From the NCBI GenBank assembly GCA_001430755.1, contig CP013062.1:600001-632000 (forward strand): 32,000 nucleotides of DNA. Reading direction: 5' to 3'. The notes below the pieces were generated by a model. The model was not told the DNA's origin. It made no database searches and was given only the letters and a program-made list of their open reading frames with translations. Within the stretch, counting starts at the first letter, position 1. Every line of letters starts with the position of its first letter. The translations under genes and the position numbers were made by a program. The stretch is from Candidatus Peribacter riflensis (GTDB taxonomy: Bacteria; Patescibacteriota; Gracilibacteria; Peribacterales; Peribacteraceae). Shown one piece after another: positions 2,255-29,345 of this stretch.

Positions 2255-3532
2255 ATGGCAGACGCCCCACGCGAATCACAGGCACAAGCACCCGAACAGC
2301 GTGAGCGCGTCACCGAGAGCGAGGTGAAACAGGCGCTCAGGCGGAATACGGCCGAGAACCGCCCGGTACACCCACGCGACGCGGAGCGACGCGAAGTGGA
2401 AAATACCCGTGACCTCAGTCTGACGACCATGGCGGTGGAAATGCTCCCCCGCGAGGGACGCATCTTGCAGAAGGAACTGGAAAAGGCGAAGAAGAAGAGC
2501 GAAGTCCCCCACCTGATCGAGAGCCAGAAGAAAGCGCAGGCCGTCGTCGGCGCGTACCTGGCGAGTCTCAAGCAGGATCTGAAGGAGAACTTTCCGGAAG
2601 AGGACTTCCGCGCAGCCTCACGCGCACATGCCAAGGGCATTCAGCGCAAGATCGAGGCCATGCTCGACCAGGCCCAGCGCGAGGGGCTCGTGACGGTCTA
2701 CAACGGGCGTATCGCGAACCGCGTGGGCTACGCGGCCGCGTGGATCGAGGAGTTGAAGCAGATGCGCAGCGGCCCCGACCTCACGCCGGGCCAGAAGCAG
2801 GCGATCATGCGCGTGGAGCGCTTCTTTCAGACCGTGCTGGATGGCGACCCCGCGTGGACACAGGCCTACAAGATCGTGCATCAGAAGCGACCGGAATCCG
2901 ACGCCGTACGACGCGGCAAGGGAGCCCTCAAGATGCTGGGCGTGCTGGCCGCAGCGGGCATGGCGTTCATCTCGGGCATTCTGGACATGAAAAATAAGCA
3001 GGTCTCGCCCTACACCCTGGCCTGGCTGGGACTCACCGGGTGGTCTGTGGGCTTCTTCAAAGGACAGGGCGAGACAGTGCGTAACCAGCTCGCCTTCGTG
3101 CCCACCAAAGACTGGGAGACGCTCTGTCAGAAGCTCGCCCTCAAAGGGCAGAACGGCGTGGATTTCATCGCCTTCATTCAGCGCGCCCACCAGAGCAAGA
3201 AAGGCAAGAAGGCCCTGGAGCTGCTCAAGAAAGCGCGACCGCAGGCCAGGCTGAATCCCCAGGAGTACATCCCGCTCCTCGTCGGCGAGAATCCGCAGGG
3301 ACCCGATGCGCAGATGGAGGCCACACTCAAGACGCTCTCCCCAGCGCAGCTCTACACCCTCTGCCTGCACGTCACCTCGGTCACCGACCGCACGGCCAAT
3401 GCGCTCCTGCGCGACTTCATCCAGAACAACGTGAACAGCCAGACGACTGCGGGTGACCTCAGGCAGTTGCAGAAGCCTCCTTCCGCTTCAACTCCTTCAG
3501 GAACACCTCCAGCTGGTCTCCCTCAGCAATGA
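2255..3532 (+). CDS. hypothetical protein with two central TM helices
   Basis: ORF track 2162..3532. The ATG at 2255 (MADAPRESQ) lies 22 nt after the upstream stop. The N-terminal half is charged. TM helices are LKMLGVLAAAGMAFISGILDM and YTLAWLGLTGWSVGFF, and the tail is Pro/Ser-rich. The last 74 nt overlap the 3' end of infB on the other strand. Confidence 0.75.
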   Translation: MADAPRESQAQAPEQRERVTESEVKQALRRNTAENRPVHPRDAERREVENTRDLSLTTMAVEMLPREGRILQKELEKAKKKSEVPHLIESQKKAQAVVGAYLASLKQDLKENFPEEDFRAASRAHAKGIQRKIEAMLDQAQREGLVTVYNGRIANRVGYAAAWIEELKQMRSGPDLTPGQKQAIMRVERFFQTVLDGDPAWTQAYKIVHQKRPESDAVRRGKGALKMLGVLAAAGMAFISGILDMKNKQVSPYTLAWLGLTGWSVGFFKGQGETVRNQLAFVPTKDWETLCQKLALKGQNGVDFIAFIQRAHQSKKGKKALELLKKARPQARLNPQEYIPLLVGENPQGPDAQMEATLKTLSPAQLYTLCLHVTSVTDRTANALLRDFIQNNVNSQTTAGDLRQLQKPPSASTPSGTPPAGLPQQ

Positions 3533-5723
3533 GGGTCGTTGCCTCGACGCGCATTCCGCACTCCGCACCCTCTTTGACCTCTTTGGCGTCCGCATCCCCT
3601 TTGCGCAGCGAAGTAATGCGACCCGTCCCCACCTGTTCGGTGCCCCGCTGAATGCGGAACGGCAGGCGCTTCATGGTGCCATCCGTCACGCGTCCGCCGA
3701 TGATCTGCTCGCTCTTCTTGGTGAGGAAGACCTTCAGCACCTGCAGGTGCCCGACGATCTTCTCGACATCTGCCGGCTCCACGAGACCCTTCAAGAGGCC
3801 CTCCATGTCCTCGAGCAGAGCGTAGATCACCTCGTACTCCCGCACACTCACGCCTTCGCGCTCGGCAATGGAGCGCGCTCCGCTCGGCACCGGAACGTGG
3901 AACGCGACCACGATCCCCTCGCTCGCCGCAGCCATCGAGACGTCGCTGTCCGTCACCGCACCGATGGAGGCATGGATGATCTTTACCGTGACCGTCTCGG
4001 TGGTGAGTTTGGCGAGCGCCTCCTTGAGTGCCTCCAATGATCCCTGGGCATCCGCCTTGAGCACGATTTTGAGCTGTGAGAGCTTGCCCTCCGAAAGCCT
4101 GCTCACAAGATCCACGAACCGCTGCGTCTGCCTGAGGTTGCGTCGCTCCTCCACAGCAGACAGAAGATCACGCGCCAGTTTTTCGGAAGCGACGACCTGC
4201 AGAATATCGCCCACCTCAGGAACGGAGTGGAACCCGGCCACCTGCACCGCGCCCGAAGGACCCACCTCCTCAAACCGCTTGCCGTGGGCATCGGACATCG
4301 TGCGCACTTTTCCGAGCGTCCGGCCGCAGACAAAGCTCTCGCCGTGGTGGAGCGTGCCGGCGTTGATGATGATGGTCGCCAGAGGGCCCAGAGAAGGATC
4401 GAGCTTGCTCTCGATCACCGTGGCCACGGCGGAGCGCTTGGGGTTGGCCGTGAAGGAATGCATCTCGGAGAGGAGCACGATGGAATCGAGCAGATCGGTG
4501 ATTCCCTGCTTCGTCTTGGCCGAGCACTGGACGAACGGCACCTGCCCGCCCCACTCCTCGGACTGGATCCCCTGCGCCGCCATCTCGCCCATGACACGAT
4601 TCACATCCGCCCCCTCCTTATCCATCTTGTTGAGCGCCACGAGCATGGGCACGCCCGCCTCTTTTGCGTGATCGATCGCCTCGATGGTCGTGGGTTTCAC
4701 ACCTTCGTCCGCCGCCACCACGATCACCGCGATATCGGTGACCTGCGCCCCGCGGGCGCGCATGGCCGTGAAGGCCTCGTGTCCCGGCGTATCGAGGAAG
4801 GTGATCTTGTGCACCTCTGCAGAACCGGCGGGCTTATGCTCCACCTGATACGCGCCGATGTGCTGCGTGATGCCGCCCGCCTCCCCGCCCGCCACGTTCG
4901 TCTCGCGGATGACATCGAGAATGGAGGTCTTGCCGTGATCGACGTGCCCCATCACCACAACGACAGGGGGACGCTTGACCAGGTTCTCCGGCTCGTCTTT
5001 GAGCAGCTCCGTAAGATTCCGGCTGAAGAGATCTTCCGCCGAGGCCTCCTCCTGCTGCTTCGCTACGGTCACGCCCAGCTCCGTGGCCACCACCGCGGCG
5101 GTATCGTAATCGATCGCCTGCGTGATCGTGGCAAGCACGCCGTTCTTCATGAGCGTCTGAATGAGCATGGGAATCTGAATACCCGTCTTTTCGGCCAGTT
5201 CCTTCACGGTGATCTGCGCCGGCAGAGAGACCACTCCCTCCTTCTTCTTTTTGATCTGTTCCTGATTGGTGGAGGAGATATCGCGCTTCTCCCGGACCCC
5301 GCGCGCCTTGCGATCGCCGAAGCGCCTGCGCTGGCCGGAAGGCCGGCTCTTGCTCATGGCCTGCTCCTGGCGGGCAATGGCCTCGCGCGAGACATCTTCG
5401 AGCGTGAGCTTGCGAAGCACGTTGACGCTCTTGTTCGCGCCGCTGCCATCTGCTTCGGCGGCCGGCTCGGCCGACGGAGTTGCCGGTGCGCCCTGGGCCT
5501 CTGGCGGTTTCGGAGCTTTGTCTTCGTCCAGGGACATGCCCTGCAACGCCTCCATATCCACCTCTTTGCCGTACTTGCGCGCCAGGAAGCGGATGATCCC
5601 CTGCGCCAGAGAATCGGTTACTTCGCGGTCCGTCGGCTTCACGCCGAAATTCACCTGCGTGAGCTCGTGTCGCAGTTGTTGACCGGTCATGCCTAATGCT
5701 TTCGCAACCTGTACAAGGCGCAT
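3459..5723 (-). CDS. infB: translation initiation factor IF-2
   Basis: GTPase motifs [24 protein letters not shown] and NKMD are present. The N-terminus [17 protein letters not shown] is IF2-like. I prefer the ATG at 5723 to the track start at 5759. Confidence 0.97.
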
Positions 5724-9625: not shown

Positions 9626-10924
9626 TTAGAAAGGAGAAACATACTTCGCCTTACCTCCCAATTCCTCCTCAATGCGCAGAAGCTGGTTGTACTTACACAC
9701 CCGATCCGTGCGCGAGGCGGAGCCCGTCTTGATCTGCCCCGTGCCGAGGGCCACGGCGAGATCTGCAATGAACGTATCTTCCGTCTCGCCGCTGCGGTGG
9801 CTGATGATCGTCCTCCAGCCGTTCTTCTGCGCCAGCTGAACGGCATCGACCGTTTCACTCACTGTTCCGATTTGATTGAGCTTGATGAGAATGGCATTGG
9901 CCGCCTTCTCTGCAATCGCCTTCTTGAGCCGCTCGACATTCGTCACCAGCAGATCATCACCGACGAGCTGAATCTTTTTTCCAAGCATCTTCTGCATCTC
10001 TTTGAACCCATCCCAGTCATCTTCACTGTGACTGTCTTCGATGCTCACGAGCGGGTAGCGATCGCAGAGAGCGGCATAGAACTGCGTGAGCTCCTGTGAG
10101 GAGAACTTCTTTCCATCTACGGTATAGACGCCTTTGGTACAGAACTCGGACGCAGCCGCATCGATAGCCAGTTTCACCGTGCCTCCGTATCCCGCCTCAT
10201 CGATGGCCTTGGCCAGAAAGCCAAACGCTTCCGCACTATCCTTCACACGCGGCGCAAACCCCCCCTCATCCCCCACGGCCGTGATGTGCCCCGCGTCGTG
10301 CAGGAGCTTCTTTAAGGTCATGAAGACCTCCACCCCCGCCCGAAGCGCATCGGAGAAGCGGGAAAACCCGACGGGCACGATCATGCACTCCTGCAGCGAG
10401 AGGCCGCTGTCTGCATGCTTGCCGCCGTTCATCACGTTCATCATCGGCACCGGCAAGAGCCCCGTCTCCTTCACCGAGAATTGCGTGGCGAGCGACCGGT
10501 AGAGGGGCAGTTTTTCGCTGACTGCACGCGCGCGGCACACCGCCATCGAAACCCCGAGAATGGCATTGGCACCCAGCTTGTTTTTCATATCCGTTCCGTC
10601 GAGGGCAATGAGCGCCCCGTCTATGATCCGCTGGTCTGCGACGTCCTTCCCGACCATGGCCGTCGCAATGGTTCCATTCACATGGGTCACCGCCTTCAGA
10701 ACGGATTTCCCTCCGTAGAGCTTCTTGTCTCCATCCCGGAGTTCCAGCGCCTCGTGCGAGCCGGTGGATGCGCCCGAGGGCACGGCGGCACGTCCGAACG
10801 ACCCATCGGAGAGCAGGCAATCCACCTCAACCGTGGGCGTCCCGCGGGAGTCGAGGATCTGTCTGGCGTGGAGAGATTGAATAGTCGGCACAGGCAAAAG
10901 GGAAAGATGCGAGCATCCTAACAC
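9626..10924 (-). CDS. eno: enolase
   Basis: [33 protein letters not shown] and full-length similarity to enolase as judged by eye. The track start is the GTG at 10924. GTG at 10891 or TTG at 10897 would give the usual short N-terminus, so the start is uncertain. Confidence 0.97.
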
Positions 10925-10941
10925 AACCCCCTACCCATCAT

Positions 10942-11000
10942 CCTAACCCTAACCCTAACCCTATCCCTAACCCTAACCCTAACCCTATCCCTAACCCTAT
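10942..11000 (-). repeat. tandem hexamer array (TTAGGG/ATAGGG)x10, read on the minus strand
   Basis: The plus strand reads cctaa CCCTAA CCCTAA CCCTAT CCCTAA CCCTAA CCCTAA CCCTAT CCCTAA CCCTAT. The higher-order unit is 24 bp, (CCCTAA)3CCCTAT. Confidence 0.95.
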
Positions 11001-11857
11001 CCCCTCCTCCGTCTCGCCCTATCGTGCAACACCCCCGTGTACCCCGCGAGCATCATCAGGGCGAACACGGCAGCCTCCGGACCCGATGAAGGCAGCTTCG
11101 TAGGCTGGGTCTTCGCTTCTTTAAGCTCCGTACCCTCCGATGTCGGCTGGAGGGACGGGACGAGAGCGCGCATGGAACTGGAGGACGTGCTCTTCAGCCG
11201 CTCCTCCCGGGCCTGCTTGCGGCGATCTTCGGCCTGGCGCAGCTTTACGCGCCACTCCTCCTCCTTGGCATCGCTGGAGGCGCTCAGGTTCTGCTCCGTC
11301 GGCAGGCGCCCTGCGAGTTTGATCCCCAGAAACTCCTTTCCCTCCAGTTCCTGAAGCCACTCCCCTCCCCACAGAACCGATGCGAGTTCACGATCCCAGT
11401 GCGTGGCACGCTCGCTGGCCAGCGCCCCGCCCACGAACGGAATGAAGGCGGCAAGCAGAAGCACGACGCGCGTCAGGCGGCGGCGCACCACCTGCAGGCA
11501 GTAACTGATGAGTAGAATGAAAGCGATGGTGACGGCGGGCAGCGTCCACCCCCACGTGTACCAGCCGATGAATGAATACGCCCGCGGCACCTCGAGCGCC
11601 ACGATCTCGACTCCGAGCCACAAGAGGAGCATCAATGCAGGAAACCAGTGCAACAGACGGAAGGCGTGATCCGCGCGGCGGCGGCGAAAGAGCGCGAAGA
11701 GCGCGAGGGGATAGAGAATGGAGAGCACGAAAAGGATCGTCCAGGGCACCGCCCCCGCCGGCAGATCAGGCAGCGTGGTGAGCAGAAGCCCCGTGAGGAG
11801 GATGACGGCGCCGAGAAGGAAAACGAGAAAAGTTTCCGTAGCGTGCTTGAGAGGCAT
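10997..11857 (-). CDS. membrane protein of unknown function (N-terminal TM bundle, charged C-terminal half)
   Basis: ATG at 11857. About five hydrophobic helices are followed by a Lys/Glu/Arg-rich region. The stop TAG (10999-10997) lies inside the last hexamer repeat. Confidence 0.8.
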   Translation of the reverse strand: MPLKHATETFLVFLLGAVILLTGLLLTTLPDLPAGAVPWTILFVLSILYPLALFALFRRRRADHAFRLLHWFPALMLLLWLGVEIVALEVPRAYSFIGWYTWGWTLPAVTIAFILLISYCLQVVRRRLTRVVLLLAAFIPFVGGALASERATHWDRELASVLWGGEWLQELEGKEFLGIKLAGRLPTEQNLSASSDAKEEEWRVKLRQAEDRRKQAREERLKSTSSSSMRALVPSLQPTSEGTELKEAKTQPTKLPSSGPEAAVFALMMLAGYTGVLHDRARRRRG

Positions 11858-18908: not shown

Positions 18909-19685
18909 TCAGTCACCTCGCCGATGATCGTGGGCAACCACCCATCCTTCTACAGAGAAGACGCCTGCTTCTCTGAGGGCACGCGCGCAACTCTCAAGTG
19001 TCGCGCCGGTCGTCGAGAGATCATCGATGAGGACGACATGCGCCGGCGGATGATCCGTTGTGCAGCAAAACGCCCCTTGGACCCCCGTGAGTCGTTCTTC
19101 GCGCGTGCGCTTCATCTGCGATCCGGTCCAACGCCTGCGCTTGAGGAGCGGCAGAACGGTGAGTCCCCGCTCTCTGGCAACGACACGGGCGAGAAGCTCC
19201 GACTGGTTGAATCCGCGCTGGAACCGCCGTGCCCAGTGAAGCGGAACCGGGCAGAGAACAATTTCGCGGGATGGTAACCTACGGTTTCCCTCCCGCGAAC
19301 CCACCCTTCCCTCAAAGGTACGGCTCCAACGCCGGGTCCCGTCAGAGCCACCCAGCGTTTCGCCGTGATTGTTTTTTGTTATCTGAGAAGAATGATCAAT
19401 CTCGGTGAGTGTCTGCACGATGAGTCGACCAAGCTCTTTATCCAACCATCGAACGTGTCCGTACTTGAACGTATGAATCGCCTTCTTTAAGAGCGGTGAA
19501 TCCGCATACGTGCTCGCGGCGACGAGGCGATCCAAAGAGCGGATGCCGCGGCGCTTCAGATCGGCAGCTTCTTCGATGACCGGGTGGGGAATGAGTGTGC
19601 GGCGTTCCTCCTCCGTCATCCACTCCCCTTCCGCTCCCGCAAGAGAACGGCGTGGGAAGAAGAGATCGAGGAAGAGCTGCCACAT
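18909..19685 (-). CDS. comF: ComF-family phosphoribosyltransferase-like protein with a 32-aa repeat-derived insert
   Basis: LCPVPLHWARRFQRGFNQSELLA and the PRTase loop VVLIDDLSTTGATL are present. I prefer the ATG at 19685 (MWQLFLDLFFP) to the track start at 19748. The N-terminus has none of the Cys pairs usual in ComFC. Confidence 0.8.
   Translation of the reverse strand: MWQLFLDLFFPRRSLAGAEGEWMTEEERRTLIPHPVIEEAADLKRRGIRSLDRLVAASTYADSPLLKKAIHTFKYGHVRWLDKELGRLIVQTLTEIDHSSQITKNNHGETLGGSDGTRRWSRTFEGRVGSREGNRRLPSREIVLCPVPLHWARRFQRGFNQSELLARVVARERGLTVLPLLKRRRWTGSQMKRTREERLTGVQGAFCCTTDHPPAHVVLIDDLSTTGATLESCARALREAGVFSVEGWVVAHDHRRGD
19262..19362 (-). repeat. copy B of a ~96-nt structured repeat, inside the comF-like CDS
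   Basis: About three quarters of positions match 27994-28094 in my hand alignment of the reverse complement, with one 1-nt indel. The copy is bounded by CGAAA pentamers exactly 96 nt apart. Confidence 0.85.
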
Positions 19686-19822: not shown

Positions 19823-21349
19823 ATGGCAAGCACAGAAGAAATTGGGAATTCTCCCAAAGGCGAAAACAAGGAAACAATGACTGAGAACACCAAAGATCGT
19901 CTGCTCGTTCTCCGGAAAAAAATCGAGGAGGGTGCAGTGCAAAGATGGGAGGCAGTCTTCGAGAATCAGAAAGTACCCGCACTGCATCTTTCTCCACAGG
20001 AGATTCAGGCGTGGTCACGCGTGTACATGTCGAATATGCAAGTGTCGGGACGACTCTGGTCAGTGGAAGACAACGCTATTGGCAAAATAGAGGAAATGAC
20101 TCTCATCAATGTCCGCGGAAAGAACGCGACATTGCTGAGTGCCGAAGTGCTATCCATCGCACGCACATTTGCGGACCGGAAACTTGTCATTCTCTGCAAA
20201 CAGCCTGAAATGGGCATCCAGGCATTTGAGGAAAAAGCTATGCAAGAATTGCTGCAGCAAGGACTGCAAGATACGAAGAACGTCCATTTTCGTTATGCAG
20301 AACATTATCGTGATCATTGGGCGAGAGACAACTTCTTGCGGGTCTATGACTATCGCTACGGGAAGAATGTCTTCGTTCACTCAACCCAAAATGAGCGAGG
20401 AGCATTTGCGAAGGAGTTGGCGGAACAAGATGCCGAACAACGATCAATCCATGAAGAGATCCCCTTCTATTTTGAGGGAGGTGATCTTCGATCAGTTGGC
20501 CCCTATTTGTTCATAGGGAAAGAATCGCTTGAAAAAGCTGGACATGCCCTGAGAGGAAATAAAGTGGATGTGCACCCGAAGCTGGTACCCATGAATATGA
20601 ATCCCGGCGAAGAGGACTTTTATGCACAGAAGAGAACGGAGACATCATCAGAAGATAGGGAGGCGCAAGAAAAAATTCTCCAGAGCCTTGGGGAGCTTTT
20701 TGGACGGAAGGTGGTGACAGTGGGAGAGGGTGACAAGTATGAGCAAGCCCTATTTCACATTGATATGTTCATCACGTTCCTTCCCAACGCGGATCAGAAA
20801 CCGACGGTTGTGGTCGGGGACATCGGTCAAACGATGAGCATTCTCGATCAGCTTTCCGAGAAAGAATGGAATCAAACCCATCAGACAATGCTTGGTTCGC
20901 AAGTGCTGCTCGGGACTGGAAAACAGCACACCATCATCGACTTGTCTCGAAATAAAGAGGACGTCGTCCGCGAGATGAAAACAGAGTCCAGCACAAGACT
21001 CCTTCGAAGAGGGCTCGATGCAGCTGCTGATTGGTTCGCGAATCAAGGATTCTCTGTTGTACGAACACCGACAGTCATTTCACAGAAGCATTCCAGATAC
21101 AGGGCATACAACAATGCGATCGTTGAGGCCTATGTGGATAAAGATGGCAACCTGAAGAGAAAAATATATATTCCTTCTTTTGGCATTTCTCCTCTCGAGC
21201 ACGTCCTTGTTCAGAAATACAATACGTTAGGATATGAAGTGATTCCCGTTCCCAATCTCTCTTCGTCAGCGGAAAACAGAGGTTCTCTCAATTGCCTCAC
21301 CTCAGAGAAACGTTTCCAATTCGACAAAGAGTACCGGGAAGGACAGTGA
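19823..21349 (+). CDS. guanidino-group-modifying enzyme, agmatine deiminase / Porphyromonas-type peptidylarginine deiminase fold, with a ~170-aa N-terminal extension
   Basis: HWARDNF, FYFEGGDL..LFIG, ALFHIDMFITFLP, RAYNNAIVE, IYIPSFG and the C-terminal GSLNCLTSE (catalytic Cys block) appear in the order expected for this superfamily. G+C is visibly lower than in neighbouring genes. Confidence 0.7.
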   Translation: MASTEEIGNSPKGENKETMTENTKDRLLVLRKKIEEGAVQRWEAVFENQKVPALHLSPQEIQAWSRVYMSNMQVSGRLWSVEDNAIGKIEEMTLINVRGKNATLLSAEVLSIARTFADRKLVILCKQPEMGIQAFEEKAMQELLQQGLQDTKNVHFRYAEHYRDHWARDNFLRVYDYRYGKNVFVHSTQNERGAFAKELAEQDAEQRSIHEEIPFYFEGGDLRSVGPYLFIGKESLEKAGHALRGNKVDVHPKLVPMNMNPGEEDFYAQKRTETSSEDREAQEKILQSLGELFGRKVVTVGEGDKYEQALFHIDMFITFLPNADQKPTVVVGDIGQTMSILDQLSEKEWNQTHQTMLGSQVLLGTGKQHTIIDLSRNKEDVVREMKTESSTRLLRRGLDAAADWFANQGFSVVRTPTVISQKHSRYRAYNNAIVEAYVDKDGNLKRKIYIPSFGISPLEHVLVQKYNTLGYEVIPVPNLSSSAENRGSLNCLTSEKRFQFDKEYREGQ

Positions 21350-22447: not shown

Positions 22448-22915
22448 ATGACAGACACCCACACCCTCATCAGCTGGACCGCTCCCGAGCGCCCTCCGCA
22501 CAACCGCGGAAAGCGCTGGTACCTGATCGCCGGAGTGATCGCGGCACTCCTCTTCGGCTATGCGCTCTTCACACAGGCCTGGACCTTCGCCCTGGTCATC
22601 GCGCTCCTCGCAGTCACCTACGCCATCATCCATCACAAGCCGCCCCTGTCGCACTCCGTACAGGTGACGGCGCACGGACTTACGTGGGACAAAACGATCA
22701 TTCCCTGGAGTGTACTGAGCGGATTTTGGATGTTGCAGGGGCCCGGGTACATCGAACTCCACATCGAACGAAAAAAGTCTGGAGGCCGGCTCACGGTACA
22801 GACGGGCGATTGTGTTCCGTTGGAAATTGCCGAGACGCTCTCGCAATTCATCCCACTGATTCAGGACCGGAGAGAAAATATACTTGACTACATTATTCGC
22901 ATCTGTAAACTTTGA
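22448..22915 (+). CDS. small membrane protein: N-terminal 2-TM hairpin plus a PH-like soluble domain (guess)
   Basis: LISWTAPERPPHNRGKRWYLIAGVIAALLF.. is followed by a second TM helix and a ~90-aa domain. Its stop TGA at 22913-22915 is 1 nt from the next ATG. Confidence 0.75.
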   Translation: MTDTHTLISWTAPERPPHNRGKRWYLIAGVIAALLFGYALFTQAWTFALVIALLAVTYAIIHHKPPLSHSVQVTAHGLTWDKTIIPWSVLSGFWMLQGPGYIELHIERKKSGGRLTVQTGDCVPLEIAETLSQFIPLIQDRRENILDYIIRICKL

Positions 22916-22916
22916 C

Positions 22917-25900
22917 ATGCTGAGCTTCAACGCCTTCGTTCGCTTTGCTCTCAGCCGCTCTCCCCTCCGGGAGCAGCGCGAACTCCTGTTCAGCGCCAAA
23001 AAGAAAGACCCGACACAGGAAGGGCAGACCGGCCCGCAGGAAACACCCGAAACGGAACGCTCGTTTGATGATGACCGCCTTGTGGAGCGCGAAGCACAGG
23101 AAACCGGTGCACAGATCTCTTCGGTGCTCCGCACGTTAGACAGTCAGGAAATTTTTGACCGCCTGGGCGAAGAACTGAAGAACGGAGAGGCGTTTGACCG
23201 CCTGTTCACCCACGAAGAGTCGACAAAAGGCATTGATCTCTCCTCCATTGCAACGAGATCAGGAATCGCGATTTACATGTCAGAGCGGGATTCCGTCCTG
23301 CCGCAGGGAACCCCGCGCGAAGTGCTCTCCGCCATCATCGACTTCGATACGCAGAAGGGATTCCCCATCGAAGTGAAGCGGACATTCATCGAGATGCTCC
23401 TGCGTGGGGCCCCCCGCATGACCGCCACATTCGCACGGGCAACGGTGACACGCATCAGAGACTACGAAGAGCAACAGGCAGCCATCGAAACCGCACGCAA
23501 GCGCTTCGAGACGGAAGAGATGCTCGGCAAGATCGGCCCGAAAGGCATGGCGGTGGCATCGCGCTTAAGTCTCGGAGAGATCCCGAATATCCAGGCTGCC
23601 GTGAACGAGATCGGAGCGAAGCACCCGCTCAGCATGGATCAGGTCCGCGAGCTCTACACAACACTCGACAACGTGAGTGAGGCGATGCGCAAAGTGAGAG
23701 AATTCGGCAACCGCTACTGGGGCACTGCCGAAGTGCTGCCGCCAGAGAAAGACGAACAACGGCAACTCGAGTACCTGCATCACCTCAAAGAGCAGGCACG
23801 CGATCTCTCGCGGCTGCTCTCGATTCAACTGAGACTGGGCGCACAGGACACGGTGCAACACCTGGAGGAAGGCGCGGCAGAAGCCATGAAGCAACCAAAG
23901 GCGCAAGGCATGGAAGATGCGATTCAGAGGAGCGCGGCGGATCCGGGCATGCGTGCCCTCAGGCTCATCGCAAAGGTGGATGACCCGCAGAACGATCTCG
24001 TGCAGGATCCCAACAATCCGCACTTCACGCAGCTCTCAGATGCATTCCTCCGCGAGTCCGAGCAACACCTGGCTACGCTCGATTCCATTCAGGAAGACAG
24101 CAATCAACTCCTGGCGCGTTGGAAGAGCCCCGAAGGACTGACCGATGAAACCCGCGACCAGAAGGGACGGCATGAATGGGCCGAACGATGCCGCACGATG
24201 GTGCAGACCATCCTGACGGACCCTGCGCTCAGCGCTAAAACGAAGCAACACCTTGAACAATTCAACGAGCAATTGCAGGATCCCGCCGCCCTCTCCGCCT
24301 TCAGCGAGAAGGAAATGGTGCGGGAAGAGTACGGCGCAAAAATTCTGCTCGAGCAGGGAGAAGCCGCGTTCACCGAAGCGAAACAGGAAGGCACGGACAC
24401 GCTGCACACCGTGATGAGCGAACTCACGGATACAGACACCCTCGCGTGGATCGATGCAAAAAAGAAGGAGGCAAAGACTCTGGAAGACGAACTCTCCGCC
24501 CTGCTCACACACCCCGTATGCCCGGCACTGGGCATCGTAGGACTCGTGCAGTCCTACTCCCGCGATCTGCAGGGTGAGCTCACGTTCCTTGCAGAAACCA
24601 GAATCCCGGATGCGCAGAAGAAGGAGATGTGCGAACGGATCGGCGTGCAACTGCAACACTGGCAACAGGCATACACGCTCGTCCGCAAGCTCGAACAGGC
24701 GACTGCCCATGTGCCGCCGGAGGGAAACGAATGCATCCGCGTCCTCCCGCGGGAGGAATACCTCGAAAAATTCGGCGTCGAGACATCCCGTGCATGCTAC
24801 TTCCGCGGATTCATCTACATGCGCGGAGATGTGCCGGAGGACGAGCGGCCCGCACTCATCGAACATGAGAAAGGACACTTCCTCATTGCGATTCTCAGCG
24901 ATCAATCACACCTCTTCCCCGACCTCCTGGAACGGTCTTTCGGCGAACCGACACCCGAACACTGGACCCTGCTCGAGTCGAAGGCGAAGGGATGGGGAAT
25001 CAGCAAAGAAGATATCCGCACCCAGTACCGGAGGGAGAATCCGACTCTTCCCGAAGCACTGTTGAATGCGCGCGTGGAGGCCCGCTACCGGCGTGCACTT
25101 CTGGAAGAGGCGACGGTGCGCGGGGCACTCGCTCCGGAAGGGCACGGGGATCGGCAATGCTTCGAAGGCCTGAAGAAAGAAGAGCTCGTGCAATTTGAGA
25201 GCGCCACGCCACTCCACTCTACGGACGATGAAGCGTTCCCCGTCGATGCGGAGGCGATGCAGCAGGCTCCCGCTGACACCAATTCCTACAACGCGCACGA
25301 GGATCTGGAAGCCATTGACCGCATGGTCAACGGCATCAAGACATTCGGCAATGCCTACGGCACACGTGATCCGCGCGGGACGAGCCGTCACTTCGACCCG
25401 CGCATAAAGCAGCAGGCCGATGCGATCGTGGATGGCGACGGGGGGTACCAGGATATCCTCGACGAACTCAAATTCATCCACACGAACGGCCAAACGCGCG
25501 CCGGGGAATCGGTGGATCCGCAGTACAACACGAAGTACCGGGAAACGGTTCTCAGATTCAAAGAGCACGTCAAGCAAACCCATGACCAGGTGGACGCAAT
25601 AGAAAAGTATTTCGCCGAGATCGCAAAGGAGCCCATGTCGAAGAAGAAGACGATCTCAGAGAAACTGGGCATCCAGTGGCTCTGCATCCTCGACATCATG
25701 CGCATGTACAAAGAGTTCGTGGAGGATATCGAAGGCATGTGGCACTCCATGCAGGACCAGAAAACCGCCGACGCCAAAGCGGCATTGACGAAAAATCTGC
25801 CCGTCTACATCCCCGGCACCAAAATCAAGATCCCCATCATCGGCAAGTACACCGAACGCCTGCCGCACTACACGGAACGCGCGCGGAACAGCAAAGAGCT

Positions 25901-27470
25901 CGAGCGTGTCAAGAAGTGGGAAGATTCCTTCACCAACCTCGACGCGGAAGAGCTCCTCGATTTGATCGGCAAAACACCCACCAGAGACCAGCTGCGTGCC
26001 AGTATCGAACTGCTCGTCAAAAAGGGCCGCATGAGCTGGGGGGACCACCGCGTCTGGAAGGCGCTCAATCAGAAATCGAATTACAAGATGCCCTTCGGCC
26101 CCTGCGAGCGGGATGAGACGCTGCGCGACAAGTGGCTGCATAAGCTGATCTCGGACATCTGGAACGACAAAGACATGTTCAACGAGTGGATGACGGGCAA
26201 CAGCGGCAATTTCGACAAGCACAAGCAGTCTTACACCCACGAAGCAGACAACTTCGCCAACATCGCGGGCAAGACGGCCTACGAGCTGCACGTGATGCTC
26301 AGGACATACGTGGAGTGCCACGATAAGGGCGGGAACTTGATCAAGCCGATGCCCGAGGAGGTGAACCCCCATCACTTCGAGGAGCTGCTCGTCTACTCCA
26401 TGCGCAACGGCAAGATGAGTATGGAGCAGAAAATCTACTATCTGATCCAGGGTGTCGCTTCCGGGTTTTTGACCCTGGAACGACTGCGTGCCATCGCGGG
26501 CGAGAAGGGAGGCGTCCTGCTCAAATTCCCCTTCTTGGACTACTTCTACCAGCGGCACAATACGCTCCCCGAAATCCGCTCTATCGCAGCACGCATTACG
26601 GAGAGAGGCCCCGACGGCAAATCAACCTTCCTGCCCGGTGCCAAGACAACGATGTTCATGCGCCTCGTGATCCTCCGCGACCAGAAGGCCCTCGAACGTA
26701 TTTCCAAGGCACTGGACAAGGGCGCAGAGGGGCTGGACCACGAAGATATTCCATACATCGCCACCGAGATCGACTGGGTGAAAATGGGAGGCCTGCTCGA
26801 CGTGATGAGCGGAGGCCGATCCAAAGTGTCGAAGGAAGGATGGAAGAACGCCTACGTGGGATTCAATGAGAAATTCAAGGTCTACGCGCACCTGGCCAAG
26901 CTGGCGAAGAATAAACGGGCGATGTTCACCGAGGAGGACGCGAGGAATCTGGCACAATCCGTCGGCGCGTACATCGTGATGGATAACCAGATGATGCGCG
27001 CGGTCAAGCTCAAGAACGGAGGAATGATCTCCCTCTCGCGCGAGGCGCTGGAGACCGAGCGGCCGGTGGCAAACCCCGCACTGCGCACGGCGGATTACCG
27101 CAACCGCTCGCGCGACTTCATCTTCGACCTCGTGGGGCGGCTGGGGATGCAAGATAGCGACCTCGGCGTCAAGGACCTCACCCTGCAGCAATTCCTCGCG
27201 AACCGCGACCGCGACCAGCGCAGCATCACCAGCGAAGAGCAGGACAAGATCGAAAAGGCAAAAGAGCCGTTCATCACGGCACTCGCAAGGAAGATCGCGA
27301 CCAGTGGGGGCACCCAAACCCTCATGGACGTGCTCGCCGAATTCGAAGACACCACATACGCCGCCGGGGGCAAATTCCTCGACAGTCATACCGAAGATGT
27401 CAATGAAACGGAACTGCAGAAATACCACGGCGAATTCGCGAGGCGCTATCAATCGATCGTCGGACAGTAG
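22917..27470 (+). CDS. 1,517-aa orphan protein with a single HExxH (HEKGH) putative zinc-peptidase motif
   Basis: A long uninterrupted frame with normal composition. All antisense ORFs here are Arg/His-rich shadows. The ATG at 22917 is preferred to the TTG at 22884. I see no TM segment or signal peptide by eye. HEKGH is encoded at 24864-24878. Confidence 0.85.
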   Translation: MLSFNAFVRFALSRSPLREQRELLFSAKKKDPTQEGQTGPQETPETERSFDDDRLVEREAQETGAQISSVLRTLDSQEIFDRLGEELKNGEAFDRLFTHEESTKGIDLSSIATRSGIAIYMSERDSVLPQGTPREVLSAIIDFDTQKGFPIEVKRTFIEMLLRGAPRMTATFARATVTRIRDYEEQQAAIETARKRFETEEMLGKIGPKGMAVASRLSLGEIPNIQAAVNEIGAKHPLSMDQVRELYTTLDNVSEAMRKVREFGNRYWGTAEVLPPEKDEQRQLEYLHHLKEQARDLSRLLSIQLRLGAQDTVQHLEEGAAEAMKQPKAQGMEDAIQRSAADPGMRALRLIAKVDDPQNDLVQDPNNPHFTQLSDAFLRESEQHLATLDSIQEDSNQLLARWKSPEGLTDETRDQKGRHEWAERCRTMVQTILTDPALSAKTKQHLEQFNEQLQDPAALSAFSEKEMVREEYGAKILLEQGEAAFTEAKQEGTDTLHTVMSELTDTDTLAWIDAKKKEAKTLEDELSALLTHPVCPALGIVGLVQSYSRDLQGELTFLAETRIPDAQKKEMCERIGVQLQHWQQAYTLVRKLEQATAHVPPEGNECIRVLPREEYLEKFGVETSRACYFRGFIYMRGDVPEDERPALIEHEKGHFLIAILSDQSHLFPDLLERSFGEPTPEHWTLLESKAKGWGISKEDIRTQYRRENPTLPEALLNARVEARYRRALLEEATVRGALAPEGHGDRQCFEGLKKEELVQFESATPLHSTDDEAFPVDAEAMQQAPADTNSYNAHEDLEAIDRMVNGIKTFGNAYGTRDPRGTSRHFDPRIKQQADAIVDGDGGYQDILDELKFIHTNGQTRAGESVDPQYNTKYRETVLRFKEHVKQTHDQVDAIEKYFAEIAKEPMSKKKTISEKLGIQWLCILDIMRMYKEFVEDIEGMWHSMQDQKTADAKAALTKNLPVYIPGTKIKIPIIGKYTERLPHYTERARNSKELERVKKWEDSFTNLDAEELLDLIGKTPTRDQLRASIELLVKKGRMSWGDHRVWKALNQKSNYKMPFGPCERDETLRDKWLHKLISDIWNDKDMFNEWMTGNSGNFDKHKQSYTHEADNFANIAGKTAYELHVMLRTYVECHDKGGNLIKPMPEEVNPHHFEELLVYSMRNGKMSMEQKIYYLIQGVASGFLTLERLRAIAGEKGGVLLKFPFLDYFYQRHNTLPEIRSIAARITERGPDGKSTFLPGAKTTMFMRLVILRDQKALERISKALDKGAEGLDHEDIPYIATEIDWVKMGGLLDVMSGGRSKVSKEGWKNAYVGFNEKFKVYAHLAKLAKNKRAMFTEEDARNLAQSVGAYIVMDNQMMRAVKLKNGGMISLSREALETERPVANPALRTADYRNRSRDFIFDLVGRLGMQDSDLGVKDLTLQQFLANRDRDQRSITSEEQDKIEKAKEPFITALARKIATSGGTQTLMDVLAEFEDTTYAAGGKFLDSHTEDVNETELQKYHGEFARRYQSIVGQ

Positions 27471-27518: not shown

Positions 27519-27959
27519 ATGCAGGTCGCCATTCAGCGGGTCGATGCCTCTCTCCCCCTCCCCAGTTACCACACGGCCGGGGCAGTGGGCTTTGACCTGA
27601 TCACGCGCGAGACGACGGTGATTGAGCCCAAGAAGATCGCGCTGGTTCCGGGCAACGTGATCGTGAAGGTGCCGGAAGGGCATGCCCTCCTGATCCTCCC
27701 CCGGTCCTCCCTCCCGAGGAAGAAGGCGCTCGTCTGTCCACACTCGATCGGCGTCATCGACTGCGACTACCACGGGCCGGAGGATGAGATCAAAGTGCAG
27801 GTGCAGAACATTTCCGATGCGCCCGTCACCGTGGAGCGCGGCGAACGCATCGCGCAGGGCATGTTCGTGAAGGTGGAGCGCGCGGAATGGGCCGAAGTGG
27901 ACGGGCACGGCGCGCAGACGCGGGGCGGATTCGGCTCCACCGGCACTCACGTTCAGTAA
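27519..27959 (+). CDS. dut: dUTP diphosphatase
   Basis: GAVGFDL, LPRSSL, GVIDCDYHGP, GERIAQ and the C-terminal RGGFGSTG. Confidence 0.9.
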   Translation: MQVAIQRVDASLPLPSYHTAGAVGFDLITRETTVIEPKKIALVPGNVIVKVPEGHALLILPRSSLPRKKALVCPHSIGVIDCDYHGPEDEIKVQVQNISDAPVTVERGERIAQGMFVKVERAEWAEVDGHGAQTRGGFGSTGTHVQ

Positions 27960-27993
27960 TACTTCGTCGCGCAGCGACGATAAACACGCATCG

Positions 27994-28094
27994 CGAAGCC
28001 GCGGGTGGCTCTGACGGGCCCCGCGGCTGGAGCGATACCTTTGAAGGGAAAGGAGAGACCGTGAGAGGGAAACCGTAGGTTTCCCTTTCACGAA
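27994..28094 (+). repeat. copy A of the ~96-nt structured repeat, in the dut/ftsZ convergent spacer
   Basis: Helix 1 is GCCGCGGG (27998-28005) paired with CCCGCGGC (28020-28027). Helix 2 is 15 bp, CGTGAGAGGGAAACC-gta-GGTTTCCCTTTCACG (28060-28092). It is homologous to 19262-19362 on the opposite strand. Confidence 0.85.
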
Positions 28095-29345
28095 TTACTT
28101 GCTAATCGGCTTTCTCATGAACGCGGGCACCTCCAGCTCTTCTTCGCTCAAACCCAGCGTGCTCGTCTTGGCGGGCTCCAGGAATGAGGTCTTGGCCGGT
28201 TCGCGCCGGCCCTGAGATGCGTCGAAGGATTCCTCACTGAAGCGTGCAGGCTTGTGCACGCCGGGCTTGATGCCGCGTGCCGCGCCGATGGCCGGCAGCC
28301 CATCCAAATGCGCCTCGTCGAAGCCCGTCGCGATGACGGTCACCTTCACCTCGCCCGTGAACTTCTCGTCGATCACGGCTCCGAAGATGACGTTCGCCTC
28401 GGGATCGGCCGCCTCGGTGATGATGCGCGCCGCCTCGTCCACCTCGAACATGCTCAGGTCATTGCCGCCCGTGATATTGAAGAGCACGCCCTTGGCACCA
28501 GAGATCGAAAGATCGAGCAGGGGGCTATCGATGGCCGCACGGGCCGCCTCGGCGGCGCGGCTGTCGCCGGTGCCGTAGCCGATGCCCATGAGCGCCGTGC
28601 CGGCATCCTGCATGATGGATTTCACGTCGGCGAAGTCCACGTTGATGAGACCATGCTCGGTGATGAGGTTCGAAATGCCCTCGATGGCATGCTGCAGCAC
28701 CTCATCCACGACCTGGAAGGCCTCGGTGAGCGGGGTGGTCTTGTCGATGAGCGAGAGGATCTTGTCATTCGGAATCGTGATGAGCGTATCCACCTTGCCC
28801 TTCAGATTCGCGATGGCATCCTCGGCCTGCTGCTTTCTCTTGAGCCCCTCGAAGCTGAACGGCTTGGTGACGACCGCCACCGTCAGAATCCCCATGCTCC
28901 GGGCGATCTCGGCAATCACATGGATGCTTCCGCTGCCCGTTCCGCCGCCCAGTCCCGCCGTGATGAAGATCATGTCTGCACCCTCCAGGGCTGCCTGGAT
29001 CTCGGCGCTGCTCTCCTCCGCGGCCTTCTTTCCCACATCCGGATTGGCACCGGCCCCCAGTCCCCGCGTCGTTCCGCGACCGATGGTGATCTTGCGCGGA
29101 GCCGGGTTGTGGTAGAGCGCCTGCATATCGGTGTTCAGGGCGATGAATTCCACGCCCTGCACCTTGGAGTCGATCATGCGCTTCACGGCATTGCTGCCGC
29201 CGCCGCCCGTACCAAGGACGACTAAACGTGCGCCGGGCGTGGCCTCGGGACGCACCTCGCGCGAGACAATCGGGCTGTCATCATGATTGGAACCATTCGA
29301 TGATGCGCGGGAGCCGGAGAAGAGAGAGCGGAGCGTATCGGACAT
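28095..29345 (-). CDS. ftsZ: cell division GTPase FtsZ
   Basis: The tubulin signature GGGTGSGS, NTDMQAL, and the C-terminal peptide LEVPAFMRK. Confidence 0.97.
   Translation of the reverse strand: MSDTLRSLFSGSRASSNGSNHDDSPIVSREVRPEATPGARLVVLGTGGGGSNAVKRMIDSKVQGVEFIALNTDMQALYHNPAPRKITIGRGTTRGLGAGANPDVGKKAAEESSAEIQAALEGADMIFITAGLGGGTGSGSIHVIAEIARSMGILTVAVVTKPFSFEGLKRKQQAEDAIANLKGKVDTLITIPNDKILSLIDKTTPLTEAFQVVDEVLQHAIEGISNLITEHGLINVDFADVKSIMQDAGTALMGIGYGTGDSRAAEAARAAIDSPLLDLSISGAKGVLFNITGGNDLSMFEVDEAARIITEAADPEANVIFGAVIDEKFTGEVKVTVIATGFDEAHLDGLPAIGAARGIKPGVHKPARFSEESFDASQGRREPAKTSFLEPAKTSTLGLSEEELEVPAFMRKPISK

Follow-up and report, generated by a model that had tools for sequence, protein, structure and literature searches.

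The 32,000-nucleotide stretch of Candidatus Peribacter riflensis DNA analysed here (the window; positions 600,001 to 632,000 of contig CP013062.1, assembly GCA_001430755.1) contains, between the convergent genes dut and ftsZ, a repeat element that is nearly the sole structure in that spacer and that recurs only once in the window, inside the competence gene comF. The question raised by this locus is what the two copies, copy A (27977-28097, + strand) and copy B (19257-19380, - strand), represent: that is, remnants of a duplication, a terminator cassette, mobile DNA, or a selected RNA. We find that they belong to a previously undescribed family of low-copy, ~115-125-nt elements, so far seen in one Peribacteraceae subclade of groundwater bacteria (Candidate Phyla Radiation, CPR; Peregrinibacteria), with a covarying, strand-specific fold. 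We give roughly even credence to the interpretation that the element, a structured module within host transcripts, works at the RNA level, is dispersed by insertion, and is selectively maintained.

The initial annotation aligned 27983-28097 (+) with the reverse complement of ~19262-19362 and argued for a selected structure rather than a decaying duplicate. The alignment is reproduced in every particular: the blocks GGGTGGCTCTGACGGG, TGGAGC, TACCTTTGA, and GGGAAACCGTAGGTT are identical in the two copies; helix 1 (P1b in our nomenclature) reads GCCGCGGG/CCCGCGGC in copy A and ACGCTGGG/CCCGGCGT in copy B, with three double changes and one C-G to U.G change; and the outer part of helix 2 (P3) reads CGTGAGA/TTTCACG in copy A and CGCGGGA/TCCCGCG in copy B, with two double changes and one G.U to G-C change. 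The many additional copies described below strongly support the argument for selection, both by RNAalifold and by pair counts for 17 copies with shuffle and slide controls. RNAalifold with 9 copies yields 31 pairs, 13 with compensatory double changes and none broken; the random breakage of pairs that would have spoken for decay is not seen. With 17 copies, 95% of cells are in standard pairs, as compared to 37-48% when partners are slid by 1-3 columns, changes on both sides are found in 14 of 29 pairs, and the covariation score is 0.38 vs. 0.18 for shuffled alignments, with 0/500 shuffles reaching the observed value. Changes on both sides affect 3 of 5 pairs in the outer helix, P1 (100% of cells paired; AUCGC/GCGAU in copy A, ACGGC/GCCGU in copy B), 5 of 9 pairs in P1b (96.6% of cells paired), and 6 of 15 pairs in P3 (92% of cells paired). 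The two helices of the initial annotation thus both covary, but the count of two was too low: P1 covaries too, and the fold has three helices. We conclude that chance origin and a decaying duplicate are excluded.

The layout common to the family comprises an A-rich leader, P1, a GAA/UGGA internal loop, P1b with a ~14-nt loop, a GA-rich single-stranded linker, and a 15-bp P3 with a GUA triloop. The predicted folds of copy A and copy B have energies of -62 kcal/mol (z = -7.3) and -56 kcal/mol (z = -3.8), respectively. The linker segment AAGGGAA is invariant, and linker plus P3 form the most constant part of the family. The conservation of loops claimed in the initial annotation holds for the two window copies but not across the family (other sampled loci are designated by L numbers): L035 and L036 have an altered hairpin-1 loop, L034 has this loop split by a ~75-nt insertion, L007 has it replaced, and L007, L026, and L034 have insertions in the P3 triloop. 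The loop insertions are themselves hairpins and leave the core intact, in the manner of expansion segments of structured RNAs, a feature that we count in favour of the RNA-level interpretation. GC-rich mini-hairpins with CGAAG, CCGAAGG, or CCTGAGCGAAG motifs are inserted in loops at L026 1389-1538, L007 3165-3318, L034 18543-18771, and L020 77-164; they resemble palindromes that flank genes for intervening-sequence (IVS) proteins, for example in the L008 spacer, and look like a separate class of insertion. In L020, P3 itself is interrupted.

The location of the element was correct in the initial annotation, but its extent was too short: the A-rich leader belongs to it, and copy A starts near 27977. 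The 15-bp hairpin at 28060-28092 begins, as annotated, 100 nt past the dut stop codon (27957-27959) and finishes 2 nt short of that of ftsZ (28095-28097). We place the right junction of copy A between CACGA and ATTAC, because L007, which lacks the element in this spacer, has ATTACTTGCTAAT too. A separate small hairpin, read from the sequence, precedes the leader of copy A; L012, L021, L022, and L024 have similar ones ahead of their leaders. Several further features were considered and rejected: a middle hairpin in the minimum-free-energy fold (CCUUU/AAAGG), which other copies do not support; a pseudoknot between loop 1 (CUCU) and linker (AGAG), which is partial and shows no covariation; a P0 leader-tail pairing, present in copy B and L024 only; and two coding readings, that is, a mini-ORF (open reading frame) MR(E/G)KP* behind a GA tract of Shine-Dalgarno type and an ORF across the leader with the end ...GGWL*, each of which varies in start, stop, and length among copies.

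The pairing pattern identifies the strand. Among wobble cells, 13 are G.U or U.G and none is A.C or C.A (~8 independent events by our count), and in 15/15 copies the forward RNA folds more stably than the reverse complement (mean difference, 9 kcal/mol). On the basis of wobble bias and stability, we conclude that one strand is selected (the dut-sense strand at copy A and the comF-sense strand at copy B), as RNA or as single-stranded DNA.

This strand assignment bears directly on the possibility that the element is a terminator or 3'-end cassette of the reverse-strand gene, with the order stop codon, P3, P1/P1b, U-run, in the manner of SPRITE, a terminator-like element of Streptococcus pneumoniae (PMC10969869). 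The gene context invites this reading, inasmuch as at six of ~11 sites the end of a reverse-strand gene coincides with, or falls inside, the P3 end of the element (ftsZ in the window, L015, L021, L022/L028, mraY in L024, and a 289-aa gene in L035/L036), and inasmuch as most leaders contain 5-7 A, so that on the reverse strand the GC-rich P1/P1b hairpin is followed by the leader complement, usually U5-7. In addition, the same spacer in L007 contains an ordinary terminator-like hairpin between an A-run and a T-rich run. However, all 13 wobbles speak for the forward strand, and 15/15 copies are less stable when read on the reverse strand; a conserved linker, an internal loop, and a 115-nt architecture are not required by a terminator; the copy in comF is on the sense strand of its host gene, yet is the best conserved; and, behind the copy A hairpin, the reverse strand has GUGUUUAUC, with just UUU. 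On the forward strand of copy A, AAUUA comes after P3. In consensus scans, neither strand of copy A is assigned a terminator, nor is copy B. The strand evidence indicates that a reverse-strand terminator cassette is not the selected structure, and we consider this explanation improbable. A secondary role of copy A in ending dut and ftsZ transcripts is plausible, because L007 has its ordinary terminator-like hairpin in the same spacer; copy A probably also provides a 3'-end structure for both genes. A promoter in the leader was rejected: a -10-like AAYAAT box is too near P1 to keep P1 in the transcript, and the promoter scan is negative.

The family so far comprises 17 copies or fragments, from Peribacteraceae genomes and metagenomes. 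We scanned genomes, one per species, with a loop-to-loop pattern and Joint Genome Institute (JGI) metagenomes with a hairpin-1 pattern; each of these pattern-anchored scans was run once, and the sample is therefore skewed toward conserved loops. The genome scan yielded 2 true loci, which are the orthologous comF copies in two other Peribacteraceae metagenome-assembled genomes. The metagenome scan yielded 19 loci, 10 of them true relatives and 9 chance matches in coding repeats, which the covariance model turns down. Covariance models added four copies missed by the patterns (L007 3165-3318, L035 19744-19859, L036 19916-20032, and L034 18543-18771) and have zero matches in the chance loci or in more distant relatives. 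A covariance model also reports L034 13956-13996 (= L005 1277-1317), a degenerate, solo 5' half with leader, hairpin 1, and several mismatches, which occupies part of the ~450-nt gap immediately downstream of dnaA; within 9 kb of dnaA, L034 thus carries three copies or fragments. Searches of plasmids, phages, and viral contigs returned either nothing or chance matches in a phage repeat protein. The density is ~20 matches in 283 kb of Peribacteraceae DNA, strain duplicates included, mostly 1-3 per locus (~20-30 kb sampled each). Copies at different loci are 56-91% identical and copies within one genome 66-74%. Copies A and B are 74% identical, and copy A is closer to L012 and L026 (82%); copy A is therefore not a recent copy of copy B. 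The neighbours are unrelated housekeeping genes (mraY, carA/purN, ileS, etc.), and no transposase or reverse transcriptase adjoins any copy.

Comparison of orthologous sites shows that copies are present in one sister species and absent in another. Copy A is seen only in P. riflensis; the dut-ftsZ spacers of ten other species or assemblies do not contain it. The spacer sequence is different in every relative, and the left edge of copy A can be placed only near 27977. Most spacers examined in relatives contain hairpin-forming sequence, and three contain a small protein gene: besides the terminator-like hairpin of L007, the occupants include C5/G5 hairpins, nested CCCTC/GAGGG palindromes, TTAGGG-type inverted arrays (TTAGGG/CCCTAA in L039), and, in some, an intact or decayed gene for a four-helix-bundle protein of 23S-rRNA-IVS/bAvd-like type. 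The dut-ftsZ spacer is a turnover hot spot, in which one hairpin element takes the place of another, unrelated one. Additional copies of the structured element occur in sister species, in the interval between the 289-aa gene and the enolase gene (L035, L036), beside lgt (L034), and beside tRNA-Lys (L007). In the window, the corresponding enolase/286-aa gene interval holds at 10917-11012 a telomere-like tandem array (CCCTAA/CCCTAT, 12-nt phase), where L035 and L036 hold the structured element instead; such arrays appear to be a second intergenic repeat family in these genomes. At L007 3380-3570, the tRNA-Lys gene (3485-3561) lies beside a variant copy of the element, and ~120 nt from that gene is a ~20-nt partial duplicate of one tRNA end (CAGGCTGAGCTACTGACCCA), a scar of the type left by integrated elements.

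The same history is evident inside comF, where the ORF stays open in-frame through copy B. ComF has 258 aa in the window and 212-216 aa in the relatives without the insert (L007, L008, L009, and L039); alignment with these relatives defines an insert of 126 nt, A-rich leader included, with a right junction at which ...CGCGAAAT is followed by TGTTCTC. The insertion is RPE-like (see below), in-frame in an intact, conserved ORF with flanks still under coding constraint, and it lies in a variable linker of the protein. It is common to the window species, L034, L035, and L036, and accounts for a 42-aa insert in Peribacter ComF. Recurrent insertion into many unrelated genes was not found: a protein search with peptides from five of the element's six reading frames matched only six clusters, all of ComF. 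Since ComF is the sole protein recovered, in-frame residence appears to be unique to comF.

Following insertion, at least some copies are, as judged from sequence comparison, under what is probably very strong purifying selection. Among four species, the comF insert is 96-99% identical, as compared to 76-84% for the rest of comF and 58-72% for its third codon positions; the insert has 5/120 variable sites vs. 212/654 in the rest of comF (Fisher p = 1e-12). In the 4.2 kb that cover comF, rseP, and dnaA, no other 120-nt stretch is as conserved as the element, which has 4-6 variable sites vs. 14-19 in the best dnaA segment; the neighbouring tRNA-Val, taken as a benchmark, has 0/77. Both stem substitutions in the comF insert keep pairing (U.G to U-A; C-G to U.G). 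At the intergenic site of L022/L028, there are zero differences over the ~130-nt element vs. ~9% in the flank. The near-identity of the comF copies might alternatively reflect recent horizontal spread by site-specific insertion (homing) rather than purifying selection. Conservation drops sharply at both boundaries, with flanks 16-24% diverged vs. 1-5 differences in the insert, and L035 and L036 are near-identical around the enolase site and 84% identical in comF, which suggests mosaic genomes. However, the differences in the insert track the phylogeny of the flanks, with L034 the outlier in both, as fits vertical descent; no homing enzyme is present; L022/L028 show the same pattern at a different, intergenic site; and tRNA-Val is equally invariant through ordinary selection. 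We consider homing quite improbable, less probable than the terminator cassette.

Conserved junction and loop nucleotides (CGAAG, CUGGAGC, AAGGGAA, and ACCGUAGGU) between covarying stems, in an element that is dispersed in few copies with no fixed gene partner, could also signify a novel class of RNA with catalytic or ligand-binding activity, namely a self-cleaving ribozyme or an orphan aptamer. Models of known ribozymes and riboswitches all score within noise: the catalytic-core covariance models of hammerhead, twister, pistol, hatchet, and hepatitis-delta-virus-like ribozymes gave no match, and the best score was that of pistol, 14.6 bits vs. a threshold of 34.5, on the small hairpin upstream of the leader and not on the element. 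Self-cleavage would exact a cost if it took place within comF mRNA, copies do not consistently occupy a 5'-UTR (untranslated region) position, and the hairpin-1 loop is replaceable or interrupted. A catalytic or ligand-binding role is, in our assessment, very unlikely, the least probable of the explanations considered. Rfam 15 likewise assigns no known family with another fold: at gathering thresholds, cmscan of the whole window reports two tRNAs and nothing else, and in scans of three copies (A, B, and that of L022) at E-values up to 10, nothing exceeds hairpin-type noise (≤21 bits) and no family recurs. Weak matches to ylbH, pistol, and miRNA models were set aside, as they are not repeated across copies. 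Kinship with tmRNA, signal recognition particle RNA, 5S rRNA, T-box, or raiA, suggested by motif resemblances, has no model support. ARAGORN finds nothing at copy A or copy B.

A further feature concerns the linker, the 3' part of which is, in all copies, a mirror repeat of the P3 purine strand (e.g., AAAAGAGAG-N5-GAGAGAAAA); in copy A the two lie within 28048-28074. Identity in the mirror register is 110/130 vs. 28-60% in other registers. When linker and P3 are combined into triples, each column is G·G-C, A·A-U, or U·A-U; at positions 2, 6, and 7 the third strand covaries with the base pair. There are two exceptions, position 7 in copy A and position 4 in L026. Such triples constitute the antiparallel purine motif, which DNA adopts readily and RNA poorly. 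Statistically, support is modest, with p about 0.03-0.2 by our own rough estimate from few independent lineages. It is conceivable, although we think it unlikely, that the GA-rich linker folds on P3 as a 9-triple antiparallel purine-motif triplex and that the element represents a new functional nucleic-acid class. We know of no contiguous triplex of this purine-motif type in natural RNA. If the active form were single-stranded DNA, the element would be a natural folded DNA element. On this reading, the comF copy, in-frame and conserved like a tRNA, would be an RNA (or DNA) gene housed within a protein-coding gene of a 1.25-Mb CPR genome. The linker and P3 are a candidate natural triplex that simple biophysics could confirm or dismiss.

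According to the interpretation that we favour, new copies would arise by insertion at new sites, mostly gene ends and in one case in-frame in comF; the element would act as RNA within whatever transcript covers it, possibly being cut out at its AU-rich flanks; and part of the copies would then be held by purifying selection. The family, its fold and strand bias, the pattern of site occupancy, and the conservation are demonstrated by the sequences; that the element works as RNA rather than as single-stranded DNA, how it spreads, and whether it serves the host are inferences. Several observations weigh against this interpretation. Scans revealed neither a promoter nor a terminator around the two window copies. 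At about half of the sites, the strand that folds runs antisense to the genes beside it, and an RNA role there needs antisense or independent transcription. Terminal inverted repeats, a target-site duplication, and a mobilising enzyme were not found at the sites examined: copy B ends in ACAAT/ATTGT, other copies are without such ends, and no duplication is common to the 11 sites. L020, L021, L034 18543-18771, and L034 13956-13996 are truncated, disrupted, or insertion-laden, as in decaying selfish DNA; from the truncated or invaded copies in L020, L021, and L034 it follows that not every copy is maintained. G.T wobbles and hairpins fit single-stranded DNA equally well, and the mirror-repeat triplex candidate uses a motif that favours DNA over RNA.

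Some of these observations are also expected if the element is a purely selfish, non-autonomous mobile element, with single-stranded-DNA hairpins (perhaps with a triplex) recognised by an enzyme acting in trans, such as an HUH or Y1 transposase, and with no host function. Presence or absence between sister species, the variable sites of residence, and the degraded, truncated, or invaded copies agree with this explanation, as do an orientation that is random relative to neighbouring genes, a forward strand that folds with DNA parameters as well, candidate triples G·G-C, A·A-T, and T·A-T that match the DNA purine motif, and GCGAAGC-type mini-hairpin motifs in core and loop insertions. However, the two hairpins are unlike, whereas the ends of IS200/IS605 elements resemble each other; no transposase is nearby; copy number is low; and the tRNA-like conservation of the comF copy, at near-saturated synonymous divergence, is unexpected for junk DNA. 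The two window copies run in opposite directions, probably on the same side of the origin, and so give no hint of a lagging-strand bias, which, with two copies, is a weak point; GC skew is uninformative about replication strand across the 32 kb. We rate a purely selfish element as rather unlikely, the foremost of the alternatives but clearly less probable than a maintained RNA module. A template-repeat/variable-repeat pair of a diversity-generating retroelement was rejected, inasmuch as the A-B differences are mostly paired stem changes of all base types and are not adenine-specific; the window contains no reverse transcriptase, and a bAvd/IVS-like gene is found only in the spacers of other species.

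Features of the two copies and of the genes around them (coordinates are those of the window unless a locus is named).
Feature	Coordinates	Strand	Description
Copy A, A-rich 5' leader	27977..27989	+	ACGATAAACACGC; aligns with A-rich stretch of all copies; weaker than elsewhere
Copy A, hairpin 1	27990..28036	+	P1, 27990-27994 with 28032-28036; P1b, 27998-28005 with 28020-28027
Copy A, hairpin 1 internal loop			GAA on one side, UGGA on the other
Copy A, hairpin 1 loop	28006-28019	+	UGGCUCUGACGGGC, 14 nt
Copy A, linker	28037..28059	+	ACCUUUGAAGGGAAAGGAGAGAC; single-stranded, purine-rich; 3' part mirror-repeats P3 5' strand
Copy A, hairpin P3	28060..28092	+	15 bp (28060-28074 with 28078-28092), GUA triloop, one G.U pair
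Copy A, 3' tail	28093..28097	+	AATTA; its TTA complements the stop codon of ftsZ
Separate small hairpin	27964..27980	+	TCGTCGC-GCA-GCGACGA, 7 bp; 4 nt past dut stop, just upstream of leader
Copy B	19257..19380	-	comF sense strand, in-frame, adds ~42 aa; leader 19380-19368
Copy B, P1	19366-19362 with 19324-19320	-	
Copy B, P1b	19358-19351 with 19336-19329	-	
Copy B, linker	19319-19298	-	
Copy B, P3	19297-19283 with 19279-19265	-	
dut	27519..27959	+	dUTP diphosphatase; NCBIfam NF001862, 2e-36; upstream of copy A, same strand
ftsZ	28095..29345	-	NCBIfam TIGR00065, 3e-124; convergent with dut; stop codon 2 nt from P3
comF	18909..19685	-	ComF-family phosphoribosyltransferase-like; TIGR00201, 3e-22, C-terminal domain; hosts copy B
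dut-ftsZ spacer	27960-28094; L007 11249-11304; L034 761-887; L035 2637-3057; L036 2641-2782		also L037-L040

The FtsZ protein of the window is identical to that encoded on CP013064.1 (GCA_001430845.1, 1.25 Mb) and on Rifle aquifer contigs. Five ~1.248-Mb Ca. Peribacter riflensis genomes have been described, in a publication in which the element goes unmentioned (PMC4736985). The two copies are adjoined by a 1528-aa ORF (22884-27470) and a 508-aa ORF (19823-21349), neither of which has NCBIfam matches. The 1528-aa ORF has a counterpart of 1517-1559 aa, without Pfam matches, at the same position in every relative examined; the 508-aa ORF recurs in same-species contigs only, and the corresponding position of L034 is occupied by a 475-aa DUF4153 protein.

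CPR bacteria have tiny genomes for which almost no non-coding RNA or repeat biology has been described, and the present element provides a clean, covariation-supported family, absent from Rfam, with defined strand, boundaries, subfamilies, and insertion history. [quoted passage not shown] Prokaryotic MITEs, including SPRITE and Correia/ERIC-type elements, are small, dispersed, and non-coding, fold as transcripts, and are possible terminators or sources of small RNAs (PMC10969869). The present family resembles them in its stable fold, its mostly intergenic location at gene ends, and occasional nesting, but differs in that no terminal inverted repeats, target-site duplication, or related insertion sequence were found, in having two unlike hairpins plus a linker rather than one long palindrome, and in occurring at 1-3 copies per ~20-30 kb sampled, with few matches in large scans. 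REP/BIME-RAYT systems and the IS200/IS605-derived PATEs share with it strand specificity, a location after genes, recognition through hairpin and not sequence, and a GTAG tetranucleotide, which here lies within the P3 loop and not at the hairpin foot; they differ in that REPs are 20-40 nt and high-copy, and in that PATE ends are two similar hairpins, whereas hairpin 1 and P3 are unrelated in sequence and the flanks contain no RAYT, TnpA, Y1, or HUH gene.

The closest parallel for the comF copy is provided by RPEs, short hairpin-forming repeats of a reduced genome that reside in-frame in intact protein genes and add a peptide segment to the product (PMC10969869). In both cases, hairpin-forming repeats of ~100-150 bp in a reduced genome are found in-frame, here in comF. 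However, RPEs comprise ten families with dozens of in-frame insertions in many genes, whereas here there is comF alone and copy number is low; the two occur in different phyla and have no sequence relation, and strand-specific covariation and tRNA-like conservation belong to the present family. With tRNA genes the element shares near-invariance in related species, stems that covary between paralogues, and relocation over time; it differs from them in lacking a cloverleaf and an Rfam match and in that some copies are clearly degraded. The family combines the behaviour of a mobile repeat, including RPE-like entry into a competence gene, with conservation as strict as that of tRNA, a combination not normally seen; it also makes tractable the question whether the small dispersed repeats of reduced genomes are selfish DNA or RNA parts that have been recruited.

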